From the IMG/VR virus record IMGVR_UViG_3300043446_000587: DNA of 20,000 bases; one strand, written 5' to 3'. The first letter of the stretch is position 1. Each line of letters starts with the position of its first letter. The notes below the pieces were generated by a model, which was given only the letters and a program-made list of their open reading frames with translations, did no database searches and had not been told where the DNA came from. This stretch comes from an uncultured virus (IMG/VR IMGVR_UViG_3300043446_000587) (Duplodnaviria; Heunggongvirae; Uroviricota; Caudoviricetes). Below are positions 1-16,461 of this stretch, in pieces. The translations under genes and the position numbers were made by a program.

Positions 1-171
1 CTTGAAGGCGACATGACTGAAGCCCAACACAAAGCCAACATCCTGATTGCCGAAACCAAAATTTTATTGAACACTCTTGTAATCATGCAAGAAAAGGAAA
101 GCCAACATGCCATACGTCAACAAGCCCCGACCCTACAAGAAAGAGTATCAGCAACAGAAGGAGCGGGGTGA
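1..171 (+). CDS. 3' end of a hypothetical phage protein (5' truncated by window edge)
   Basis: Frame +1 is open from base 1 to TGA at 169-171 (LEGDMTEAQHKANILIAETKILLNTLVIMQEKESQHAIRQQAPTLQERVSATEGAG*). It overlaps the next ORF by 65 nt. Not in the ORF track. Confidence 0.6.
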   Translation, partial: LEGDMTEAQHKANILIAETKILLNTLVIMQEKESQHAIRQQAPTLQERVSATEGAG

Positions 172-418
172 ACACGAACGTCGCATGGAGCGCCAGCGCG
201 CACGTCGAGCGATTGACAAGCGTGACACTGGCACTGTGACTAAAGAATCTCCTAGACGCAAAGGCAAAGATGTTGCACACGTCGTCGCGCTCGACAAGGG
301 TGGTACAAATAAAGACGGTACATACATCACAAGCGCCGCCGCAAATCGTTCTTTCAGACGCGACTCTAAGGGTAACCTCGTATCTGAAACAAGCAAAAAA
401 GAACGAAAAAGAACTTGA
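107..418 (+). CDS. Small basic HNH-like endonuclease family protein
   Basis: 103 aa. GKDVAHVVALDKGGTNKDG...AANRSFR resembles the DxxH..GGxN...NR pattern of phage HNH proteins. AAGGA RBS-like sequence upstream. Confidence 0.7.
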   Translation: MPYVNKPRPYKKEYQQQKERGEHERRMERQRARRAIDKRDTGTVTKESPRRKGKDVAHVVALDKGGTNKDGTYITSAAANRSFRRDSKGNLVSETSKKERKRT

Positions 419-442
419 CAAATAAAAAATCGGACTTATCAT
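415..442 (+). promoter_or_regulatory. sigma70-type promoter
   Basis: Perfect TTGACA at 415-420, AT-rich 16-nt spacer, TATCAT at 437-442 (5/6 match to TATAAT). It sits at the start of the long intergenic region. Confidence 0.7.
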
Positions 443-443
443 A

Positions 444-755
444 GTATTCAGTGCTTGGTTTGCTTTGCTGAGTACAGGCCATAAGGTGTGAGTGGGCCAG
501 AGGTTTAATTGCGCCTCGTAACCGCATCAGTCAATCGGTGGTTTAAATCCTCCCTTTCGCCGCGACAGGATTGACTGACAACCCGGAAAGACGGGTACTA
601 ACACGCATGAGTATTGTCAGGGGCTGGAAACCTCTGCGGTAGTCGCAACCTGCTGCTGTAGCAAAGGCAGTACTCAGTCGTGTTGGTGGAAAAGGGTAAC
701 GCTATGGGACGCCATAGCTATGTTGCATCGTGAGGGCTTTGCAACTGAAACAACC
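444..755 (+). ncRNA. Unclassified cluster of structured RNA elements (leader or sRNA array)
   Basis: Back-to-back helices, several with G-U pairs that favour the + strand: 444-451/468-475; 477-480/495-498; 500-503/514-517; perfect 10 bp 527-536/569-578; 581-585/592-596; 597-605/679-687 plus 608-618/666-676; 701-707/712-718; 722-727/740-745. Confidence 0.6.
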
Positions 756-884
756 TCCCACGCTCCGTTCAGGGGGAAGCACCCTGCTGATGATTGGGAC
801 ACCAACAACTTGCATAAGCCGAAGGCTCGACGGTTAATCTAATCCGTCTGAGGTATCCACCGCACCAAGAAACAGAAGCGGGGA
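756..884 (+). ncRNA. Candidate type III hammerhead ribozyme with expanded stem II
   Basis: GUU 767-769; stem I CAGGG 770-774/CCCUG 782-786; CUGAUGA 787-793; stem II UUGG 794-797/CCAA 865-868; GAAAC 869-873; stem III extension UCCC(A)CGCU 756-764/AGCGGGGA 877-884. Atypical features are a U-A pair closing stem II and a 67-nt loop II. Confidence 0.45.
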
Positions 885-906
885 CAACAAACAGTTTTGG
901 AGAAGT

Positions 907-2475
907 ATGGAAGTAGTTGAAGACAGTGCAGTGCGCTTTCAGTGTCCACCTGAAATTGCGCAAGACATCACAAAGTACATCAAGAAGTCCGAGGTGCTTT
1001 CGTCGTCGAACGGTGTCGCTGATGTTGTGGTGTATTGGGGGCTTGAAGAGATGCAACGTCTCGCGCGCCTTACCCCTAGCACAATCAAAGTCCCATCCCC
1101 TATCGAGCGTGATTACAAGTGGCCCGGAATGTACACGCCTATGGACCACCAGCGAGATACCGCACGGTTTCTTTCTTTGCATCGTCGTGCGTTTTGCTTC
1201 AATGAAGCAGGCACAGGCAAAACATCAGCGGCTATCTGGGCGGCTGACTATCTGATGAATCAGGGTGTGGTGAAGCGTGTCCTAGTCATCTGCCCCCTAT
1301 CAATCATGCAAAGCGCATGGCAAGCTGATCTGTTCAAGACAGCTATGCACAGAACATGTGCTATCGCACACGGCACGAAGCGTCGTAAAGTGATTCAAGG
1401 CGGCTACGAGTTCGTCATCATCAACTATGACGGCGTGGCGGCTGAGTTTGAAACTATCAAAGCACATGGGTTTGACCTTGTCATCATCGACGAAGCAAAC
1501 GCATACAAGAACCCAAGCACCGTGCGTTGGAAGGTTCTTGCCAAGATGATTAATCCAGACACGTATTTATGGATGATGACCGGCACTCCTGCGTCTCAGT
1601 CACCCGAAGATGCTTTTGGTCTGGCGAAGTTGGTGAACCCAAACAATGTACCGAAATATAGAACTGCGTGGAAAGAGAAAGTCATGACGCAGATTACTCG
1701 GTTCAAGTGGGTCCCAAAGTCTGATGCGCGTGACACAGTGTTTAGCGCTTTGCAACCTGCTATCCGCTACGAGAAGGCGCAGTGCGTTGACTTACCAGAG
1801 CTGACACACCAGACACGAACAGTGCCGTTGAGTCCACAGGCGGCGAAGTATTACAAGGACCTTGTGCGAGAGATGCAGATTCAAGCCGCAGGTGAGACTA
1901 TCAGCACAGTCAATGCCGCCGCCGCACTTAGCCGCTTACTTCAATTGTCGGGCGGGGCTGTCTACACCGATGATGGCAATGTGGTCGAGTTCGATGTAGC
2001 CCCACGGTTGAGCGTCTTGCATGAGGTCTTGGAAGAGTCGCCACACAAGGTGATTGTGTTTGTGCCGTACAGACACACCCTGACTCTGATAAAAAATTAT
2101 CTGGACAAACACAGCGTCAGCAACGAAGTCATCTCCGGTGATGTATCAGCTAACGAGCGATCAGCAATCTTCAATCGTTTCCAAACAACGAATGACCCAG
2201 AAGTATTACTGATTCAACCGCAAGCCGCATCACATGGTGTTACTTTGACCCGTGCTGATACGGTTGTGTTCTGGTCACCCGTCATGTCTGTCGAGACATA
2301 CTTGCAGTGCATTGCGCGTATCGACCGTATCGGACAGAAAAATTCTATGACAGTCATCCACCTTCAAGGGTCCGAGGTGGAACGGCGTATGTACACGATG
2401 TTGCAAAACAAAGTGGACATGCACGAACGACTTGTGGACCTGTATCGAGAAGAAATGGAGGAAATCAATGGTTGA
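907..2475 (+). CDS. SNF2-family (superfamily 2) helicase/ATPase
   Basis: 522 aa. Q-motif-like PMDHQ, Walker A NEAGTGKT, LVICPLS, Walker B IIDEAN, motif III MTGTP, motif V HGVTLT, motif VI QCIARIDRIGQ. GGAG RBS at 899-902. Confidence 0.93.
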   Translation: MEVVEDSAVRFQCPPEIAQDITKYIKKSEVLSSSNGVADVVVYWGLEEMQRLARLTPSTIKVPSPIERDYKWPGMYTPMDHQRDTARFLSLHRRAFCFNEAGTGKTSAAIWAADYLMNQGVVKRVLVICPLSIMQSAWQADLFKTAMHRTCAIAHGTKRRKVIQGGYEFVIINYDGVAAEFETIKAHGFDLVIIDEANAYKNPSTVRWKVLAKMINPDTYLWMMTGTPASQSPEDAFGLAKLVNPNNVPKYRTAWKEKVMTQITRFKWVPKSDARDTVFSALQPAIRYEKAQCVDLPELTHQTRTVPLSPQAAKYYKDLVREMQIQAAGETISTVNAAAALSRLLQLSGGAVYTDDGNVVEFDVAPRLSVLHEVLEESPHKVIVFVPYRHTLTLIKNYLDKHSVSNEVISGDVSANERSAIFNRFQTTNDPEVLLIQPQAASHGVTLTRADTVVFWSPVMSVETYLQCIARIDRIGQKNSMTVIHLQGSEVERRMYTMLQNKVDMHERLVDLYREEMEEING

Positions 2476-2644
2476 CCCAAACAAGTTGCAGTATTTCACG
2501 ACCGCCGCATGGCTAAGAGGATACGCTTCTGGGCTAGATGAGTATCAACACAAAACTCTTATTTTTAAATTAAACCAAGCCGCAGACCTGCTTGACCACG
2601 TGTGGAGCAGATATGTGGAAGAAGAAGGGGAAAACAATGGCTGA
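2468..2644 (+). CDS. Hypothetical protein (58 aa, MVDPNKLQYF...)
   Basis: ATG at 2468 preceded by GGAGG. Overlaps the helicase stop and the next start by 8 nt each, consistent with translational coupling. Confidence 0.7.
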   Translation: MVDPNKLQYFTTAAWLRGYASGLDEYQHKTLIFKLNQAADLLDHVWSRYVEEEGENNG

Positions 2645-3050
2645 CGCCAACGCATTAGTAGAAACCTATTTGACGATTCGCCGTGAACGTGAAAAACTCA
2701 AGGCAGAATACGAATTACAAGACTCAGAGTTGAAAGGAGACATGGAGAAAATTGAAGCAACCCTGCTATCAATCTGTAACGATCAAAATGTCAGCGGATT
2801 GAAAACTCCGCATGGCACAGTAACACGGTCAGTCAAAGAGCGATTCTTCTGTACTGACTGGGACCACTTCAAAAAGTTTGTGGAAGCAGAAGGTTCAATC
2901 GACCTTCTAGAGCGCCGCATTCATCAGAAGAACTTCAAAGAATTCATGGCTGAGAGGCAAGGCGAAGGCTTACCTCCCGGCGTGAACGCTTTGCGTGAGT
3001 ATGACATTACTGTACGCAAGGCATCAGCAACCAGTGAAACATCAGTTTAA
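2637..3050 (+). CDS. Conserved phage hypothetical protein with N-terminal coiled coil (137 aa)
   Basis: ATG at 2637 after a purine-rich RBS. YLTIRRERE coiled coil, KTPHGTV, TDWDHFKKFV, LLERRI and LPPGVN motifs are of a type common in phage replication modules. Confidence 0.8.
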   Translation: MADANALVETYLTIRREREKLKAEYELQDSELKGDMEKIEATLLSICNDQNVSGLKTPHGTVTRSVKERFFCTDWDHFKKFVEAEGSIDLLERRIHQKNFKEFMAERQGEGLPPGVNALREYDITVRKASATSETSV

Positions 3051-7181: not shown

Positions 7182-7368
7182 TGAGCCGTTGTGGGATTTG
7201 CCATACGAGGTGATGGAAGTTGGCGACAGCTTCTTTATACCGACTCTGAAGCCCGCATACTTAACGTATGTGATTGATACGACCTCCAAAAAGGCTGGCT
7301 ACAAGGTCAAGGTGTTTACCGTGACTGAGAAGGGCCTTCTTGGGGTTCGTGCTTGGCGGGTTGGTTAA
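7150..7368 (+). CDS. Small conserved phage protein (72 aa), possibly DNA-binding
   Basis: ATG at 7150 overlaps the primase end. LPYEVMEVGDSFFIP...GVRAWRV is a pattern common in small phage proteins. Confidence 0.75.
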   Translation: MTKPKQIRPLDEPLWDLPYEVMEVGDSFFIPTLKPAYLTYVIDTTSKKAGYKVKVFTVTEKGLLGVRAWRVG

Positions 7369-10300
7369 GGCTTCATTCCGAAGTCTTCTTTGAACGTCAA
7401 GAGCAGGTCGCGTTTGATTGCGTTCTGGTAAAGCATCAACTCGTCGATCTGCTCCTTGCGTTCGCGTGGCGTAATCTCGTCACTAGGCATAGCGCGCACC
7501 TCGTTGAGCTGTTGGCGCACCTTACGCAAGCCACGGTTGATCTGCTTGTTGTAATACTTCACAATGTCAGCTTCATCCGGATTGTTAGACACATACTCGT
7601 CGTACATGTCTGGGCGGCTTTCCTTCATCGTGTTGAGCTTCTGTTCGATGCCCTTGATACGATCTTCCACCCGTGCAAATTCACGCGCATCAATGTTGGA
7701 CTTAGCACCAACGAATCCACGCACAAACGGCACTTCGTTGCGTACATCGAAGTCTTTGCCACCACCCATGACCTGAGTCAAGCCGTAGCCCATCGAGGCA
7801 ATCTGAGCCATACCGTCGATATAGTTACTAGCCAAGAACATCATGGTGTTCGGGTTCATGTCCACCGAGCCGTTGGTAATATCAAACAGCAAGCGCGCAG
7901 CATCCTTGTACATGCTTGGTGTGCTATCACTGCCCATGTAGGCGTCACCGTAGCGTGACTGACGGTCGTTGTAGATAGAGCGGCCCAGACCATCGAGGTT
8001 CATCACAAACTCAAACAGCGGACGAGTCAACGATGGGTTCAGCGTGTCAGCGATAAAGGGCAGTGGCTTCTCAAACATGTTGATCTTGGAAATGGGCAAC
8101 GGCAGATAGTTGTCCATCATGATCTGGCGGATGTTGTCGAAGTTGGTTGCCAGAGAGTCCCGACCCATAGTCATAGCTGCCATCTGTGCGCCAATAGCCG
8201 CAAACGCGCCGTGACCGAAGCCCCAACGAATCTGGATTGGGTTATCAGACCAAGGCACAAAGAACCGTGCGTTGCGGGTCCAGCGCGCTGTGTCGTCGAT
8301 AGCAACCTTGTTGCGGCCTTCTTCATCGTCACCAGCCATCATGTATGACATGTAGTACATCATCATGCCCATGCCGACCAGACTCATAATCATGTGACGG
8401 GCATTCTCAGCTTCACGCTTGAGCTGCTTAAGCGCCTCATCAGTACGGCGGCTGACTTCAGCATCAGTCAAATTCTTGTCGCTGTTACGCAGGAACTGAC
8501 CGTACTCTGCGCGGAACATCTCTTCACGCTCCTTGATGATTCCCTTGCCGGGAAGTAACGTGCCACTCACGCCGTACAGACGCAAGGCAGGCATGATCGC
8601 TTCAATCGCACGATACGCACCAGTAGCCGCAGGACGGAAGAACATGAACAGCGCACCCGCTGCCTTGCCCCATTCACCAGTCTGCTCAAAGTTAGCCAAG
8701 TTTTTAGTCTCGGCAGCGGCTTTCACTTTTGCGTCAGCCAGAGCTTCAGCATCGGATTTGAACCGTCCGCTCTTCTTGTTTTCAGCGAAGTATTGAGAAC
8801 GCAAGGCGCGATACGCCCCGACGCGGCTGGAGAGTTCCAGCGTGTCGTTATACATGTCTACATAGTTGTCAACGAACTCTTTGGCACGAGTGCCCTTGCC
8901 ACGGTTCAAGTCACGCGACAGTTGTTCTTCGGCGCCACGGGCAGACACGGCTTGCAGGTATGACACCTTGCCACCCATATCCACATACTCTTTCAGGTCG
9001 CGGTAGTACTGCTGTTCTTTTGTAAGCTGGTCGTAGGGTTTGGTCCCACCAGCCAAGCGGTTCAATTCTGCGTTGTTACCTTTACCAGACAAGTACGCAA
9101 ACTTAGCCGACTTAGCAATACCGCCGTTGAAGAAGATGTCATCAGCAGTTTGACGAATCAACTGGAAAGACTTGCTTGGGCCGTACTTAGCACCAAGGTT
9201 CCATGCGTTGGTCAGCAAGTCAGTCAAGAAGTTCACTGGACCGAACGCAGGGTTGTAGCGAGTGTGGGTCTGACCCATCAAGCTGGTGTAGCGGTCAAGC
9301 GTGTCGATGATTGGGTTTGCTGTGCGATATGTACGACGGATAGCCTCTGCCTCCGCAGCGGAGGTCAGGTTGATAACCGCGATGCGTCCATCTGGCTCAT
9401 AGTGGAAGATTTTGCCGGGACCAGCAAGGTCAGCCTTTTCCACGTTGTCGATGTAGCGGTCACGGAAGTCAATGTACTTGATCTCACCCTTCAGGATGCC
9501 AGACTCGACGGCGTTCTTAATAGCCAGCGTCAGGTCAGAGCGACCAGCGCGCAGCGCAGAGCCACTTGCATCAGCCATCACTTGCAAGATAGGGTTTTCA
9601 GATTCAGACTTACGACCCTCAAACGCATTGGTCATGTCTTGGAACTCACCGCCGATCAAACGAGAACCCATATCCAATTGATCGTCGATTGTGCGCTGGC
9701 CCTTGCGACCTTTGAAGGGGATATAGTTTTTATACCCGTAGAACTTGGAAATATTCTCAACAGGCTGCGACCAATAGTTGGCCTCTTGGTTGAGGTCCTT
9801 GGTCTGGTCCATGACTTTGCTCAAAGACTTCCATACGGCATCAATTTCTTTCTGGAGCTCTGGACGGTCAAACTGTCTGCGAATGTCAGCAATCTCATCC
9901 GCGCTACGACCCTCTGCGCTCACGCCGTCACCGATGACGCTGTAGTTGGCGTTGTTCACATCGTATGTCTCGTCGTTTGTTTTGGGCGCGCGCATGTCTG
10001 GATTGTTCTTGGCGTCGTTGACCACGGTCTCAAGTGCCGTACGCAGCTGCGCGATGGTCTTGGCATCGTATTTTTTATTCTCTGCCAATAGACTCTTGAT
10101 CTCGCGACGCAACGCTTCGGCGCTGTAGGTCTTGCCCTTGTACTCATCACCCATGATGCTGTCCAGACGATACACCTTGCGGGTGTCATCCAGCGGAACA
10201 CTGAACAAGAACTTCACCATACGACGCTCAGGCTCGTGGCGAGCTTCCATAATCAAGTGCAGTTCTGCGAGCGCATCGTTAACAGAGATGCCACGCTTCT

Positions 10301-13300
10301 CGGCGTAAGCACCAATGTCGCCCTCCAGCGCCTCGGTCAGATAGCGCATGCGGGAGTTGAAGAGGTTCACACCCCTGCCGATGGCGAATGTAAGCTGGTC
10401 GTAAACGTTGTTCAGTTTGGGGCCAAGGCGCTCAACCATGCCTAGACGGTCAGCAACCTGCTGGATACGGCGAATACCTTCTCGGCTGTTTGCAAACTTG
10501 CGCACCATAAGGTTGTAGCCCTCGTACGACATCAAGTTCTTAATCAGCGACTTAGCACCGCGCTCTTTAATCTGCACCTGCTTCTTGTAACCTTCACGGC
10601 GTTGGTCTGACGACTGGGTTGGCATGACAGGCGCAGCCATAGTTGACCCCAGAGGAGCCATGTCGATACCACCTTTGGGCGCAGACACAACATAGTCAAA
10701 CGCTTGGAAGGCTTCCAACAGAGCGGACGTACCGCCTTGGAACTTAGCAATGTCAACGCCTAGCAACTCAGCAATGCTACGGACAAAGTTTCTCCATGCG
10801 CTAACTTCTCCGGGGACCAGAGAGTCTTCACGTGGGATGGCAATGTTATTGAGTTCAGTCTGGAATGCCTCGTTGGTCATCGCCTCGCTCAAGAACTCAT
10901 ACACGTTTGTGTAGGCATCTGGGAACTTTTCGCCAAGCTTGTTCTTGGTGATGTTCATCAGGTATGTGAGGTGCTCCGCCGCATCTTCTTGTTTGTCGGA
11001 CAGCTTGTTTTGTGCCTTGGTGTAATCGTTGAGCACCTTGACAGACGCAGCGTGAACCAGCTCGTGCAACATGGTGCGCTCAGTCTTGCCAGCCTCAGTG
11101 ACACGAATCACATCTGCCTTGGGGTCGTACTCTGCCACGCGTCCGTCTGGGAGCGATCTGACAAACTCTAATTTAGTATTCAGCTTGAGCTGACCAATAC
11201 GCTTAGCCACCTCTCTCAGAATAGGAGAGACATTCTTTGATGTCTTGAGATAGTTGAGCGCTGCTAGCAGATTGCCATTCTCGACTTGTTTCTTGATCTG
11301 GTTTGGCAGCTCGGCTTCTTTGACCTTGGACTCAGGCTTGCCGTGGACTTCATCCGCAATAGCAGCCGCCGCTGCGTCAAACGACTCAGCGCTACCGTCC
11401 TTGGTCATCTCAACCACCCGTGCTTGTTGGGCGGGGGTCAGTTCACCAAACGCAGGGACTTGGCGTTTAGCGTTGTCAGCCTGCTCGTTGTGGTACTCGC
11501 GTGACGCTTCAAACTCGTCGATGAAGTCTTGGCTGACTTCTGGCGCGGCTTGTTCTTCTACTGCTGGGGCAGTTTGTCCTTGCAGTGCGGCTTTTACGCG
11601 CTCAAACAGCGCCTTGTATTCTTCTGTATTGGTTACAGGAGCTGTACCTAGAGCGTTGTAAAGGTTGTCGCCAAGGTTCTTTTTGATAGTTTCTTCAGGC
11701 GTGTCTTTAGCATTCCAGTACGGAACACCATTACCGTCAAAACCTATGCTCAGTACCTTTTCTTTGCCTTTGCTATTCAGGAGGCGCAGCGCAATGTTTT
11801 GCGCTTGTTCTTGGTCAATAAGCTCAGTGACTCGTGTTTTACCGTTTGCTAGCGTAGTATCCATTTTGTGATGGATAAACCCAGACTTGTCCTGCCATGA
11901 ATTTTCATCTTCAGGCGCATTTGGATTTGGACGCCAATAGTTTTCTGGCTTTGTTGCATCAGTAGACGGTGGAGGCGCAGAAAAGTCAGGGACGTCTGTA
12001 AGCTCTTCTACTGGAGCGGGTGTGATTCCTTTTCCTTTAGTAGCACCTGCAACATTCGGTCCAGTAGATACCACTCCAGTTCCGTCAGATGGTTGAGGTC
12101 CTCCGGCGGGGGGTGCAACATCACTGGCTGGTGCAGGTACGACAGCGCCTTCTCCACCTGCTGTGGTGTCAGTTTGTCCAACATTTGGTGCTCCTTGCGT
12201 TTTAGAGAGCGCAAACTCATATAGGCGTACCTGTTCCTTTTTGCGTGCAATCTTTTTAAGAATATCTTCTGGCGGCTTTGTACCGCTATCGAGATAAGTG
12301 TTTACTTGCCCTTCCAGTGAAGACAATTCTTTTTTTAATTTTTCACTTTTGGCAGCAACGCTTTTGACTACATCAGGCGTGGCTTTACCTTCGGCAACAG
12401 CTACTAGCGTGTTGAACTGGTTAAAGTTGGTTTCAGCAATCTTGACGTGCGTACCCTTTTGGCCCTTTTCCAAGAAAGTGCCAAGCTTCTTTTCCGCCGC
12501 ATCGCGCAAGTCATACAGTTCACCCATCGGGGTAGCTTCTGCACGGATGTCAGGCGCTGTTTCACGTGGAACTTCTGCCGCAGTTGTTTCACCAGCAAGA
12601 ATCTTGGCGAACTCTGTTTGGTCTGGAGCCTCGGGCTGTGCGCCCAACATGACGTCCTCTGCCTGTGCACGCTCTTGCCCACGCTCTACGAAACGACCGG
12701 GAACGCCCAACGCGCCACCAAGCACCGCGCCGCCGATAAAGTTTTCCAAATACTCTTTGCGTGCGGCTTCGTCAGTAATATTCAGGCCAGCTTGCAAGCG
12801 TTCAAACACCTGCTGCGCGGCTTCAGTTGTACCTTCAATACCAGCGGTCTTGCCAGTTTTGAGGGTGTAGTCCACCACAGTATCTTTAAGAGTACGCTCA
12901 AGAATCTGCTTGGCTTGCGCTTCAGTCAACTTCTCGCCAACAGAGCCAAACAGTTTGCCCAGACCGGGGACCATACGCAATGACAGTGTGTCTAGGGCCG
13001 CTTGAGGGATAGACGCTAGCACGGCGTTACCAAGGTCAGTCTCAGACAGACGCTTGCCTTCTTGTATCTGACGAGACAAGTTTGAGCCAGTAAATTGTGC
13101 AGCGGACGCCAGACCAGTAGCGCCAAGCGTAGCCAGACCAGCGGGAGCAACAGCAGCGGCGGCAACAGGAGCGGCAATATAGGGCAGTGAACCACCAGCC
13201 AGCTCTTTGAACTTGGTCCAAGGTGCTTCATCCCAACCTTCTTCGGTAGGCTTGAATGTGCGTTTTTGGTATTCCTCTTGCTCGGCGCGAATCTGCTCGG

Positions 13301-13559
13301 CTTTCTCTGGAGAGATGATGCCAGTTCTACCTGCTAGGGTAGCAAGGTCCTCGTACGCACCAGACGCACCAGCTTTTAAAGCGGGAATAAAACCCGACTC
13401 GCCTTGCGGTTCGACTGGTTTAGGCGGCGCAAAATCAAGCGGCTCCATAGCGCTGAAGTGCGCCATCGCCAAGTTACGCAGGGACGTTTTACTTAATCCC
13501 TTGGGAGCCTCCAGATCGTAAACCTTGCCGTCTGGACCTCTTACGGTGTACGTTGCCAT
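7365..13559 (-). CDS. Large internal virion/DNA-ejection protein (polyvalent type) with zincin-like HExxH domain and LPD38-like C-terminus
   Basis: 2064 aa with AAGGA RBS. Hydrophobic Gly/Ala helices near the N-terminus; MLHELVHA followed by YEFLSEAMTN; C-terminal hydrophobic helix followed by WTRNARFFVP...IRWGFG...RPLFEFVMNLDGLGRSIY. Last gene of the virion operon. Confidence 0.75.
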   Translation of the reverse strand: MATYTVRGPDGKVYDLEAPKGLSKTSLRNLAMAHFSAMEPLDFAPPKPVEPQGESGFIPALKAGASGAYEDLATLAGRTGIISPEKAEQIRAEQEEYQKRTFKPTEEGWDEAPWTKFKELAGGSLPYIAAPVAAAAVAPAGLATLGATGLASAAQFTGSNLSRQIQEGKRLSETDLGNAVLASIPQAALDTLSLRMVPGLGKLFGSVGEKLTEAQAKQILERTLKDTVVDYTLKTGKTAGIEGTTEAAQQVFERLQAGLNITDEAARKEYLENFIGGAVLGGALGVPGRFVERGQERAQAEDVMLGAQPEAPDQTEFAKILAGETTAAEVPRETAPDIRAEATPMGELYDLRDAAEKKLGTFLEKGQKGTHVKIAETNFNQFNTLVAVAEGKATPDVVKSVAAKSEKLKKELSSLEGQVNTYLDSGTKPPEDILKKIARKKEQVRLYEFALSKTQGAPNVGQTDTTAGGEGAVVPAPASDVAPPAGGPQPSDGTGVVSTGPNVAGATKGKGITPAPVEELTDVPDFSAPPPSTDATKPENYWRPNPNAPEDENSWQDKSGFIHHKMDTTLANGKTRVTELIDQEQAQNIALRLLNSKGKEKVLSIGFDGNGVPYWNAKDTPEETIKKNLGDNLYNALGTAPVTNTEEYKALFERVKAALQGQTAPAVEEQAAPEVSQDFIDEFEASREYHNEQADNAKRQVPAFGELTPAQQARVVEMTKDGSAESFDAAAAAIADEVHGKPESKVKEAELPNQIKKQVENGNLLAALNYLKTSKNVSPILREVAKRIGQLKLNTKLEFVRSLPDGRVAEYDPKADVIRVTEAGKTERTMLHELVHAASVKVLNDYTKAQNKLSDKQEDAAEHLTYLMNITKNKLGEKFPDAYTNVYEFLSEAMTNEAFQTELNNIAIPREDSLVPGEVSAWRNFVRSIAELLGVDIAKFQGGTSALLEAFQAFDYVVSAPKGGIDMAPLGSTMAAPVMPTQSSDQRREGYKKQVQIKERGAKSLIKNLMSYEGYNLMVRKFANSREGIRRIQQVADRLGMVERLGPKLNNVYDQLTFAIGRGVNLFNSRMRYLTEALEGDIGAYAEKRGISVNDALAELHLIMEARHEPERRMVKFLFSVPLDDTRKVYRLDSIMGDEYKGKTYSAEALRREIKSLLAENKKYDAKTIAQLRTALETVVNDAKNNPDMRAPKTNDETYDVNNANYSVIGDGVSAEGRSADEIADIRRQFDRPELQKEIDAVWKSLSKVMDQTKDLNQEANYWSQPVENISKFYGYKNYIPFKGRKGQRTIDDQLDMGSRLIGGEFQDMTNAFEGRKSESENPILQVMADASGSALRAGRSDLTLAIKNAVESGILKGEIKYIDFRDRYIDNVEKADLAGPGKIFHYEPDGRIAVINLTSAAEAEAIRRTYRTANPIIDTLDRYTSLMGQTHTRYNPAFGPVNFLTDLLTNAWNLGAKYGPSKSFQLIRQTADDIFFNGGIAKSAKFAYLSGKGNNAELNRLAGGTKPYDQLTKEQQYYRDLKEYVDMGGKVSYLQAVSARGAEEQLSRDLNRGKGTRAKEFVDNYVDMYNDTLELSSRVGAYRALRSQYFAENKKSGRFKSDAEALADAKVKAAAETKNLANFEQTGEWGKAAGALFMFFRPAATGAYRAIEAIMPALRLYGVSGTLLPGKGIIKEREEMFRAEYGQFLRNSDKNLTDAEVSRRTDEALKQLKREAENARHMIMSLVGMGMMMYYMSYMMAGDDEEGRNKVAIDDTARWTRNARFFVPWSDNPIQIRWGFGHGAFAAIGAQMAAMTMGRDSLATNFDNIRQIMMDNYLPLPISKINMFEKPLPFIADTLNPSLTRPLFEFVMNLDGLGRSIYNDRQSRYGDAYMGSDSTPSMYKDAARLLFDITNGSVDMNPNTMMFLASNYIDGMAQIASMGYGLTQVMGGGKDFDVRNEVPFVRGFVGAKSNIDAREFARVEDRIKGIEQKLNTMKESRPDMYDEYVSNNPDEADIVKYYNKQINRGLRKVRQQLNEVRAMPSDEITPRERKEQIDELMLYQNAIKRDLLLTFKEDFGMKP
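12008..12184 (-). CDS. Candidate overprinted small gene nested out of frame in the 2064-aa gene (58 aa)
   Basis: AAGGAG (12196-12191), 6 nt spacer, ATG (12184); TAG at 12010-12008. Product MLDKLTPQQVEKALSYLHQPVMLHPPPEDLNHLTELEWYLLDRMLQVLLKEKESHPLQ. Confidence 0.65.
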   Translation of the reverse strand: MLDKLTPQQVEKALSYLHQPVMLHPPPEDLNHLTELEWYLLDRMLQVLLKEKESHPLQ

Positions 13560-13573
13560 ACTTGGTTTCCTTT

Positions 13574-16000
13574 TTACGAGAACAGGTCAACGTCAACGTC
13601 GTCGGTATCTTTAGATTTTGATTCAGATAAAGCGCCGGGCAAGAAACGACCAACGTTTTGTTTCTCTAGATGGCGTAAGAACTGTTCCTGTGTCATACCT
13701 TTATCCTTGAGCTCTTTTGGTACTCGACCACCATAGACTTTATCAAAGATATTTAATGCATGAGTAGCCGCTTTTTCTTGCGCGCGGCCTGTTGCTTTGA
13801 ACACTTCCAAGTCCATGCGGTTGCCTGTCGCGCCAGCACGAGCTGACAAGATGCCTTCCTTTACCTTGTTCGAACGAATCTGCTCGTTGAGCTGTGCTTG
13901 TTGCAGCTTGCGGGTTTCAAGGCTGTTAGCCAAGTTAGCGGCAGTCTGCTGGTCGCCTTTCTTGAGCGCCACTTCGTACTTGGTCATCTCAAGATTCATC
14001 TTCATGGCGTTGTCTTTAGCAGCACGTGCCAGACGATCTGTCTCGGCGGCAGACTCGTACAGTGTTGGCGATGCAGCAGCAGCGCTCTCCAACAGGCCAC
14101 CCAGACCGGGGCGGCGCGCTTGACCGGGACGTGCGGCATTTGCAGCCATATTGAAACCAAATGCGGCTAGAGCTTTACCCAAGCCAGCTTTTTTGATTTC
14201 TTCTGAGTCCTTGGCATTTGCTAGCAGCGTGTCTTTAATACTCTTGAGCTGGTCCTTAGACGAGCTTGTCAGTTTGTCCAAGAACTTGTTGTAGTTATCT
14301 TCGAACGTGTCGCCTTGTCCCATTGCTTCTGCAATACCACGGGCTTCTGCCACCGAAGGATGCCCGTCAGCTTTAGGTTTGGATTTTCCAGCGCCCGTAT
14401 CTTCACTCAGCGTACCCATGTAATCTTCACGGCGGGTGGCTGTAGCACGATCAAATTTATCTGCTACGGCGGCAGGTTCTGACTTTGCTTCTGGTTTACT
14501 AGGACGGCTAAAACCGTAGCCGGGGTACGACACAATATGTTTAGGAATATCGGCAAGGAAGCTACCCAAGGAGCGCATTTGTTCGCCATAAGACATGGGC
14601 TTACCTTCGTCGCCGCCTTCAGCAAACGCAACCATGCCACCACTAGCAGCACGGATCATGTTGTCTTGGGACTCCGCAGGCAGCTGGTCAAACGCATAGC
14701 CTAGACCGCTGTTGATAGAAGCATTCTGCGCGCGCATCTCGTCGTTGCTAGCCAAAAGCTGGTCAACATAGGCCGCTGTCTCAAAGTCACGGCGCGCCAG
14801 AGCAGCCTGTTTAGCGCGGAACAAAGCCTCGGTATTGCCACGAATACTGTCGAGCTTGTCTTCAATAAAGTCCGAACTAGTAACAGAGCCACGGTCTCCG
14901 GCATAAGTCTTAATCTCGCCGCCTTTGGCTTTATTAGCGGCGTTGTACAGACTAGACAAGCCCAGAGCACCGACACCTAGACCGGCGGCCTGACCCAGCA
15001 AACTGCCGGGAGCTTGATACATCTGAGTTGTAGACTGCTGACCCAATGGCAAGCCACGGATCATATCGGACATGAACCCCAACTGTTTGTATGGGTAGTT
15101 CTGCTCGTCCATGAAGTCTTGATAAGCCTGAGTCAATCCTTGTTGACGTAGCGCCTGCTGTTGCGCGCCGTATGCAGCCTGCAACTTGTTGATGTCCATG
15201 CCTTGCTGGAACTGCTGACTGCCTAGAGCGCCGAGCTGACCTGCACCGGTAAGTGCGGTCTGAAGTCCTTGCATGCCAATGTTTGCTCCAAACTGACGTG
15301 ACTGTTCGCCAAGCTGTTGAGCCTGCATAGCACGTTGTTGGTCGGCGTTGAACTGATTGGCGGCTTGCGTGTAAGCGTCCTGCAAGCCTTTTGACATGAT
15401 GTCGCCCTGCTGAATGCCCAAGTTACGCTGGCGCTCGGCCTCAACCAAAGCTGAACGGGAGCCACCAAACGCACCTTGGCCTACGGCACGAGCCGCATTC
15501 TGCTGCCCCATAATATCAGACGCACGTTGCGCTTCACGCAACTGGGGAGCCAAAGCCTGCTGAATAAACGGACTCATGTACTGAGCTGCTTCTTGCCCGC
15601 CAAACTGCCCGCCGTAGAACTGACCGCCTTGATAGTTTTGCCCCAGCCCACGCAAAGCAGCTTGCCCAGCAACTTGACCGCCCAAGCCAGTCAAACCAGA
15701 TGTCTGCATACCGGCAGCTTGCTCCTGCGCCTGCTGTTGTAAGGGACTAAATCCAGCAAAACGGGGCTGGTCGTATCTTTGGTATGGTTTTTCTGAAAGC
15801 GCCGCTGTTTTTTCTAGGGTGCTCTTAGCATATGGGCGCGCCCACTCAGGTAGTTCGTTAATCTGAGTTTGTGTTCCAGTGGAAGAACCTCCGCCGCCCC
15901 CGCCACCGCCAAGAACCATGCCGCCATCCGCTTTGCGGTAGGTAGCGCTGTCTCCAAGGGGTTCACCCATAGCATAGAGTTGTCTGCGAGAGTAGCTCAT
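13574..16000 (-). CDS. Internal virion/DNA transfer (ejection/pilot-like) protein
   Basis: 808 aa, Gln/Gly/Ala rich and helical. G8 run near the N-terminus, LPEWARPY, YMSPFIQQAL and GAFGGSR motifs. Located in the virion operon with ATGA coupling to the GNAT. Confidence 0.7.
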   Translation of the reverse strand: MSYSRRQLYAMGEPLGDSATYRKADGGMVLGGGGGGGGSSTGTQTQINELPEWARPYAKSTLEKTAALSEKPYQRYDQPRFAGFSPLQQQAQEQAAGMQTSGLTGLGGQVAGQAALRGLGQNYQGGQFYGGQFGGQEAAQYMSPFIQQALAPQLREAQRASDIMGQQNAARAVGQGAFGGSRSALVEAERQRNLGIQQGDIMSKGLQDAYTQAANQFNADQQRAMQAQQLGEQSRQFGANIGMQGLQTALTGAGQLGALGSQQFQQGMDINKLQAAYGAQQQALRQQGLTQAYQDFMDEQNYPYKQLGFMSDMIRGLPLGQQSTTQMYQAPGSLLGQAAGLGVGALGLSSLYNAANKAKGGEIKTYAGDRGSVTSSDFIEDKLDSIRGNTEALFRAKQAALARRDFETAAYVDQLLASNDEMRAQNASINSGLGYAFDQLPAESQDNMIRAASGGMVAFAEGGDEGKPMSYGEQMRSLGSFLADIPKHIVSYPGYGFSRPSKPEAKSEPAAVADKFDRATATRREDYMGTLSEDTGAGKSKPKADGHPSVAEARGIAEAMGQGDTFEDNYNKFLDKLTSSSKDQLKSIKDTLLANAKDSEEIKKAGLGKALAAFGFNMAANAARPGQARRPGLGGLLESAAAASPTLYESAAETDRLARAAKDNAMKMNLEMTKYEVALKKGDQQTAANLANSLETRKLQQAQLNEQIRSNKVKEGILSARAGATGNRMDLEVFKATGRAQEKAATHALNIFDKVYGGRVPKELKDKGMTQEQFLRHLEKQNVGRFLPGALSESKSKDTDDVDVDLFS

Positions 16001-16461
16001 AGTGGCTCCGTATTCAAAACTTTCGAGAATAGCTTGTCGGTAAATGTGTACCCAAGATATTCAAACAAACGAGAATTGTCGAGGAAAACCTTTGTGTGCA
16101 TGATGACACGGTTCACCCCTTCTTTTTTAAGCACGTCTTCTGCGAACTGGAACAGACGGAGTCCCACACGTCCCTTGCGGTACTCTTTCTTCAGATAATA
16201 AATATCCTCAAAGGCAGTCAAGCAAGTTCTGTAATGTAAGTGTGGTTGCACAATAAAAATTGCGTAACCAATAAGCTGATTATCCTCTCTAACCGTGATG
16301 CAGCGCAACATGCCAGCCACGTGCATTCGTCCAAACGCTTCGTAATCTGGGGCTAGAGGGAAGTCCTTGCAGGGGCAAAGCTCTTCGTAGTGTGACGGCA
16401 GTATCTCCCTGAGGGCGTCAATGAAGTCGCCCGGGTCTTCAGTTTGATACGTTATCGTCAT
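15997..16461 (-). CDS. GNAT-family N-acetyl/acyltransferase
   Basis: 154 aa. LIGYAIF strand, EDIYYLKKEYRKGRVGLRLF (acyl-CoA binding motif A), SRLFEYLGY (motif B). Confidence 0.85.
   Translation of the reverse strand: MTITYQTEDPGDFIDALREILPSHYEELCPCKDFPLAPDYEAFGRMHVAGMLRCITVREDNQLIGYAIFIVQPHLHYRTCLTAFEDIYYLKKEYRKGRVGLRLFQFAEDVLKKEGVNRVIMHTKVFLDNSRLFEYLGYTFTDKLFSKVLNTEPL

Follow-up and report, generated by a model that had tools for sequence, protein, structure and literature searches.

A phage intergenic region as an array of exchangeable RNA cassettes, probably cut by the host RNase III

Integron cassette arrays are built of constant imperfect hairpins that alternate with interchangeable cargo, and the phage locus described here is comparable in layout but differs in its RNA cargo, in having no integrase among 150/177 flanking ORFs and in having no extrahelical bases. 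Closer parallels are phage RNAs processed by RNase III. Sites of the T7 R1.1 type, as described in the accessible part of PMC1540722, share with the carrier stem of our unit A an 11-position helix, proximal and distal boxes and a U-C-type mismatch by the cut. In the precursor of DicF from the Qin prophage a stem flanks the excised small RNA, as in unit A, and dicF.dicB scores −23.9 (Table S5a, from the available part of PMC6212723). The present locus differs from T7 and DicF in that many unrelated phages employ a single standard stem repeatedly, in tandem, with about 100 different cargos and in alternation with a tRNA-like carrier. Modular shuffling driven by homology between short conserved intergenic elements is known from the T4-type PeSL cassettes and is seen here as well; PeSLs, however, are promoter-terminator units that shuffle protein genes (PMC2839356, accessible text), whereas the carriers described here look like RNA-processing signals and their cargo is RNA.

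Other phage RNAs share single traits with the locus. The lambdoid anti-sRNAs AgvB and AsxR, too, combine a constant scaffold with a variable portion and sit in a tolerant position downstream of the late promoter, but they are 51–60 nt long with a 14–18-nt variable seed, are separately transcribed and, in the available text of PMC4104026, have neither carrier stems nor arrays. The C4 antisense RNA of P1 and P7 (RF01695) is likewise tRNA-like, cut from a longer transcript and variable in its loop (PMC5320573, accessible part). An identity with C4 was rejected, since RF01695 matched none of five records at E ≤ 10, nor the window, no likeness to P1 c4 was visible and no flanking a/b target repeats were seen. 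The pseudo-ToxI RNA of PhiTE is an earlier example of a host RNA being imitated by a phage non-coding RNA so that defence is weakened, but it consists of tandem repeats of one mimic (PMC3475682, available part), and its family RF02519 had no match in the cargos tested here.

The window, by which we mean the whole stretch of 20,000 nucleotides that was analysed, belongs to an uncultured dsDNA phage and holds a small HNH-like ORF, an SNF2 helicase, and primase-like and virion genes (ORF list, Pfam, PHROG). Among its other genes are a 2064-aa virion-type protein that ends in the large polyvalent protein domain LPD38 (7365–13559, − strand) and a GNAT acetyltransferase (15997–16461, − strand). The region of interest lies at 415–906, between the 103-aa HNH-like ORF (107–418, + strand) and the gene of an SNF2-family helicase, the first of the replication operon (907–2475, + strand; Pfam PF00176 and PF00271, phrog_62). 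The initial annotation had described it as the only long gap, set between an HNH and an SNF2 gene. The gap is real, with smaller ones at about 2476–2591 and 7182–7364, and the SNF2 assignment is borne out by Pfam and PHROG; the HNH label is a reading by eye of an ORF with no Pfam match and a weak one to phrog_4590. The ORF list has no + strand entry reaching 50 aa within the gap, and one of the frames there is stop-free over 87 codons. BLASTN of 400–920 against cultured phages returned no match, and the nearest record, G001, was likewise without one.

Transcription of the gap would start from a sigma70-type promoter, TTGACA-16-TATCAT, which overlaps the stop of the HNH-like ORF (415–442, + strand) and agrees with the consensus at 11/12 positions. 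The scan of 1–2000 found one such site where 1.5 are expected by chance and is by itself little proof; a similar site is present in 40/78 distinct related gaps, and the near-consensus promoter claimed initially is retained. A hairpin of eight pairs, three of them G-U, sits at the predicted transcript start (451–475, + strand; sequence reading and fold). On the + strand 415–906 folds at −169.7 kcal/mol (z −3.12), better than all 100 shuffles, and on the − strand at z −0.93, with 18/100 shuffles as good, so that the gap is structured on the strand first proposed. Folding and covariation together give about 19 helices, in line with the earlier count of more than a dozen. The description "fully tiled" holds by covariation and does not hold by energy alone, since 2/9 windows of 120 nt reach z ≤ −3 and the remaining ones are at the background of the whole stretch (−2.2 to 1.6). 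Neither a tRNA search of the gap nor an Rfam scan of 1–3000 (E ≤ 5) found a match, which agrees with the initial statements that no canonical tRNA is present and that the region could not be assigned to a known family. The gap is made up of four modules: a resident RNA, M1, two cassettes termed units A and B, and a short tail.

M1 (477–595) combines a pseudoknot with an anti-Shine-Dalgarno loop and is typical of the HNH–SNF2 gap of related phages. Protein searches yielded 160 loci, and in most close relatives the gap measures 160–275 nt versus 488 in the window, where units A, B and the tail make up the extra 310 nt. For the alignment, 107 gaps of 100–520 nt were taken, 26 without an M1 anchor were dropped, and the 81 anchored ones were reduced to 42 distinct loci by removing near-duplicates. 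Across these, 94.1% of 901 cells are paired and 20/22 pairs show two-sided compensatory change, a level reached by 0/500 shuffles; slid controls gave 30–39% paired. The 5′ domain (477–528, + strand) is an H-type pseudoknot in which P1 pairs 477–480 with 495–498 (compensatory in 6/6 pairs) and 485–490, six nucleotides of a 14-nt hairpin loop, pair past an invariant AAC linker (520–522) with 523–528 (compensatory in 4/6 pairs, 98.4% of cells paired); P2 (500–518) is an optional hairpin. Around the pseudoknot 9 positions are invariant and 8 nearly so. Stem P3 (529–576, + strand), compensatory in 7/7 outer pairs, exposes a C/U-rich loop at about 542–557, and CUCC or UCCU lies inside P3 in 41/42 loci versus 14.5 expected. 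A GNRA-like hairpin closes M1 (582–595, + strand) and follows P3 in 22/42 loci; hairpins of this type precede 19/127 A units versus 4/78 control stretches.

The sequence of M1 points most likely to an action through the exposed anti-Shine-Dalgarno loop. A pairing of this loop with ribosome-binding sites of the same phage was rejected, since no covariation was found (median ranks 0.46 and 0.5) and the SNF2 site is in the top tenth in 3/42 loci; for this reason the P3 loop is taken to be a generic anti-Shine-Dalgarno loop. A YAGU motif that had caught the eye close to start codons showed no enrichment (59/246 versus 56 expected). Among the 120 M1 pattern matches listed, 40 of which have short flanks, an HNH-like gene lies upstream in 107, SNF2 accompanies 90 and neither accompanies 13. 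Where both neighbours are missing, M1 heads tRNA-containing arrays or, as in L235 and L238, occurs by itself upstream of a terminator-like hairpin. It often begins about 10 nt past the upstream stop with no promoter. The site tolerates protein cargo too, as extra small genes lie between M1 and SNF2 in L161, L180, L223, L231, L232 and L236, and another recurring module with a T-loop-like hairpin occurs after M1 or before a B unit in L021, L028–L032, L271 and L486. The SNF2 proteins of L115, L116, L136, L141, L147, L154, L159 and L160 lack the first 60–70 residues of the window protein.

Unit A (597–687, + strand) is a carrier stem, 597–616/668–687, that folds over 20 positions as 9 pairs, a 2×2 internal loop and 9 pairs, and encloses a 51-nt cargo (617–667, + strand) of two hairpins in a three-way junction. 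Its 3′ arm continues directly into the stem of unit B. A-like units occur in 2/83 distinct related gaps, one of them doubtful. A pattern scan of IMG/VR with the A stem found at least 120 viral loci, with 114 distinct units among the matches listed, and the pattern is also present in 20 GTDB genomes, of which 14 have titles that place them in the Betaproteobacteria. At the stem positions that the pattern leaves free, 356/360 cells are paired (shuffle mean 306, maximum 315), and on the + strand the stem shows 23 G-U against 3 A-C. Two or more A starts are found in 24 of the 120 A loci listed and tRNAs in 15, all of these on the array strand; A and B carriers recur in tandem, often beside tRNAs. 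In the search for the window's A cargo 8/9 matches were judged chance. A copy of the cargo that agrees at 50/51 positions is found in L506, whose array has variant stems and consists of four A units plus four B units. In L344 the HNH-M1-A-B-SNF2 order of the window is repeated with different cargos.

According to the accessible part of PMC1540722, an RNase III substrate is an 11-bp helix whose proximal box has G-C and A-U/U-A pairs, with no G-C/C-G next to the cut, and whose distal box has a U-A plus a strictly needed U-G. The mapping of this box numbering onto the A stem is our own. The geometry of the A stem agrees with that description, with 11 positions inside and 9 pairs outside, where at least 6 nt are required (PMC1540722). 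In 20 pattern-independent A units the proximal box holds U-A at +3 and G-C at +4 in 20/20, G-C/C-G is absent from proximal box position 4 in 20/20, and the distal box holds U-G at +9 in 15/20 and U-A at +10 in 18/20. At +2 (proximal box position 3) the stems depart from the preferred A-U, with an A-G mismatch in 13/20 and A-U in 4/20; all four L506 stems have A-U there, and A-G occupies this position in 2/85 E. coli targets (PMC6212723, as available).

We scored 128 A stems with Table S4 of PMC6212723, an E. coli model used here for phages whose host may be betaproteobacterial. The predicted register was the best in 117/128 stems and in 16/20 of the pattern-independent ones; the median score was −23.9, and 97/128 were at or above −25.5, a value that heads a column in Table S5a of the same source, in its available part. 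Among the controls, threading gave 6.3%, 0.9% of pair-order permutations reached or exceeded the observed score and the antisense view gave 16/128; as the 128 stems share one consensus and 110 were chosen by a pattern that fixes the boxes, they amount to about one observation, with p about 0.01–0.04. Unit A of the window scores −24.7, register +3 ties with it at −24.8, and 66/2000 threaded stems match it. The predicted cuts fall after 605 and after 680, and the second would create a 5′ end at 681, precisely where the 8-bp stem of unit B begins, a coincidence that is an independent fit to the modelled register. An earlier register, with cuts at 611 and 674, was rejected on the box definitions in the accessible part of PMC1540722.

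Unit B (681–807, + strand) has an 8-bp stem resembling a tRNA acceptor (681–688/800–807) around a cloverleaf-like cargo of 111 nt (689–799). In 14 homologous loci 98.4% of the cargo cells are paired and 8/38 pairs are compensatory (0/500 shuffles), and the cargo follows 12 different upstream stretches. Although the window's unit B has no tRNA match with RF00005, two other B units pass the Rfam tRNA cut-off with extra arms (44.2 and 40.1 bits over 104–108 nt). The tRNA 3′ end (NCCA/ACCA) is nevertheless not typical of 61 B units, whose tails are mostly AACC (23) or AACU (13). Because B units can score as tRNAs with extra arms and yet do not end in ACCA, unit B is a tRNA-derived shell and not a tRNA. 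A hairpin adjoins the 3′ strand in 28/61 B units versus 9.5 expected.

Cultured phages carry these elements as well: A-like stems and one B family are present in several of them, including PAJU2, PhiPLPE and the qut–S interval of HK620, and in HK620 and PAJU2 one B family sits at the AgvB/AsxR site after the late promoter. The qut–S late leader of HK620 (L485, about 355–1000) contains two related long stems that surround cargos, a member of the common B family and a short reading frame that by eye resembles a tmRNA tag. The B family of L359, L372, L374, L376, L463 and L484–L488 is marked by two constant hairpins, one 5′ and one 3′, and 6 nt of complementarity between their loops could allow a kissing contact; the family is common among cultured phages of proteobacteria, and Rfam gave no match to it. 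In L304 a type I hammerhead-like core was seen by eye directly after a B unit, about 95–140 nt after the start of the unit, and was not reported by Rfam.

The tail of the gap holds two small hairpins (817–827 and 829–848, + strand; sequence and fold) for which a homologue search found nothing. Module C (852–884, + strand), a small putative pseudoknot before the SNF2 ribosome-binding site, lies at the same position in 3 relatives, among which its first stem shows one two-sided change; 19/22 matches in its pattern scan, and 28/31 in another search, were judged chance. Single low-depth contigs, from a run that is probably DNA, join 595 to 815 and 603 to 850, which weakly suggests that some relatives lack A and B.

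The cargos collected, 124 from A and 116 from B units, fall into at least about 170 families, 39 with several members and 131 with one; the limits of the B units were set automatically and a few overrun. On their own the cargos fold weakly, slightly better than shuffles (median z −0.68 sense and −0.45 antisense; below −1 in 47 versus 33 of 120). In an Rfam scan of 63 A/B loci tRNAs alone were above the cut-off. The top PHROG matches of the nearest flanking ORFs, 150/177 of which were scanned, include terminase (25), HNH (12) and Dps-like proteins (7); in L335, L347, L350, L385, L394, L395 and L413 the array lies between an HNH gene and a Dps-like gene. The cargo family of L417, L450, L394, L413, L447 and L506 occurs in both A and B carriers and presumably resembles the ToxI repeat. 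That likeness was rejected, since RF02519 did not match the cargos tested; its best match (E 0.012) lay elsewhere in the record, and the controls matched in 10/14. Mimicry of rRNA as a general rule was likewise rejected, since exact matches of 10 and 11 nt between 162 family representatives and the rRNA of E. coli were as frequent as chance predicts; those of 12 nt numbered 4 versus a shuffle maximum of 3. Bases 1–12 of E. coli 23S rRNA are matched exactly by the A cargo of L345, L352 and L355, and one B cargo matches 16S at 174–185. Profiles of the window's B and of M1 did not match rRNA (best E 0.2).

The initial annotation had proposed a polycistronic array of small structured RNAs, and this is supported in that the modules show compensatory changes, M1 in the related HNH–SNF2 gaps included, and are recombined differently in other phages. 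We consider it likely that the region is an array of interchangeable phage RNA cassettes set on the resident M1 and processed by the RNase III of the host, so that its RNAs are probably cut apart by a host nuclease. One promoter-driven transcript would carry M1 and an inserted pair of standard cassettes, and two cuts in the stem of unit A, after 605 and 680, would free M1 (about 450–605), the A cargo on an 11-position stem (606–680) and a downstream RNA whose 5′ end, 681, would coincide with the start of the B stem. Unit B would then refold by strand exchange into a tRNA-acceptor-like shell protecting its cargo and the helicase mRNA; as the outer arm of A and the stem of B compete for 682–687, folding and cutting may be coupled to each other. 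In longer arrays the next A stem would free the 3′ end of B. The constant carrier ends could offer about 20 nt of homology for the swapping of cargos among phages of Betaproteobacteria, and the recurrence of the same RNA pieces in new combinations in unrelated phages suggests, at the level of sequence, a shared and shuffled library. More tentatively, the cargos might work in trans on the host, decoying or regulating its RNA-binding proteins, its nucleases or its translation; their diversity and exchange among unrelated phages resemble an arms-race repertoire, whereas the weak folding of the cargos by themselves and the negative results on likeness to rRNA, C4 and ToxI speak against it.

The stems could instead be processing or stabilising signals for the downstream mRNA, as in T7 early mRNA, and the enclosed sequences drifting, hitch-hiking passengers. 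Weak folding of the cargos alone and many one-member families would agree with this, as would the frequent position of arrays before terminase genes (25/150 flanking ORFs), where processing could matter. It is nevertheless unlikely, as compensatory changes preserve the fold of the window's B cargo, each of the two cargos in the window moves without its neighbours, and mRNA processing would not need arrays that reach four A plus four B units. A single cis-regulatory leader of the SNF2 operon, which the initial annotation had offered as one option, would have the M1 loop switch the ribosome-binding site of the helicase. Such a role would account for M1 preceding SNF2 in 90 of the 120 matches listed (40 with short flanks) and for CUCC/UCCU in P3 of 41/42 loci, but it conflicts with the lack of covariation with the SNF2 site (3/42 in the top tenth), with copies of M1 that have no start nearby on the downstream side or are followed by a terminator-like hairpin, and with the two cassettes and the predicted double cut that separate M1 from the SNF2 site in the window. 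Since 81/83 distinct related HNH–SNF2 gaps are without unit A and the same units elsewhere precede terminase, Dps-like and polymerase genes, a leader is quite improbable as the whole story.

Imperfect inverted repeats with AAC and GTT ends and a variable centre recall attC sites, and the A stems might on this ground be single-stranded DNA hairpins, attC- or REP-like, used by a recombinase or transposase that moves the cassettes, whose mobility and strand asymmetry would fit as well. The top PHROG matches of 150/177 nearest ORFs contained no integrase, transposase or Cas, enzymes acting from afar being possible, and the absence of an extrahelical base, the conserved U-G at the RNase III distal box, the tRNA shells and the co-oriented tRNAs all speak against a DNA role, which we regard as very improbable. 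Little credence is left, finally, to release of the RNAs by self-cleavage, the other option offered initially, with M1 as an unknown small ribozyme. The invariant and near-invariant positions around its pseudoknot (9 and 8), its frequent start some 10 nt after a stop without a promoter and the hammerhead-like core seen by eye in L304 would suit a ribozyme, but Rfam reported no small self-cleaving ribozyme in the window or any locus scanned, where permuted or new forms would escape, and unit A instead fits the RNase III determinants. The topology of M1 is also unlike the pistol, twister, hatchet and HDV folds.

We found no published account of the A and B carriers in the literature covered, which leaves most subscription papers outside; the supplements of PMC5737381 and PMC10690425 may list single modules. 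The 8495 candidate RNAs from IMG/VR of Fremin 2023 (PMC10690425) gave no motif or contig match in the files searched, which comprise all but two large ones. The principle of processing is known, and what is new, as far as searched, is that phages share a pool of RNA cargos mounted on two standard carriers.

The repertoires by which phages counter defence and take over the host are known almost only as proteins, individual RNA mimics being few. Even if the cargos should be passengers, M1 and the B cargo are two well-supported structured RNAs that Rfam lacks. Processing by RNase III, if true, makes a precise and testable prediction for the RNA ends and would be a natural version of a design for expression from a tRNA scaffold with RNase III. 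It is conceivable, though we offer it with reserve, that phages of Betaproteobacteria share an integron-like library of hundreds of structured effector RNAs, each carried in an RNase III stem or a tRNA-derived shell, strung in arrays cut by the host and recombined among unrelated phages as decoys against its defences. If so, this RNA cassette system would let phage RNA effectors be enumerated from their carriers, as the at least 170 or so families from 240 cargos may illustrate.
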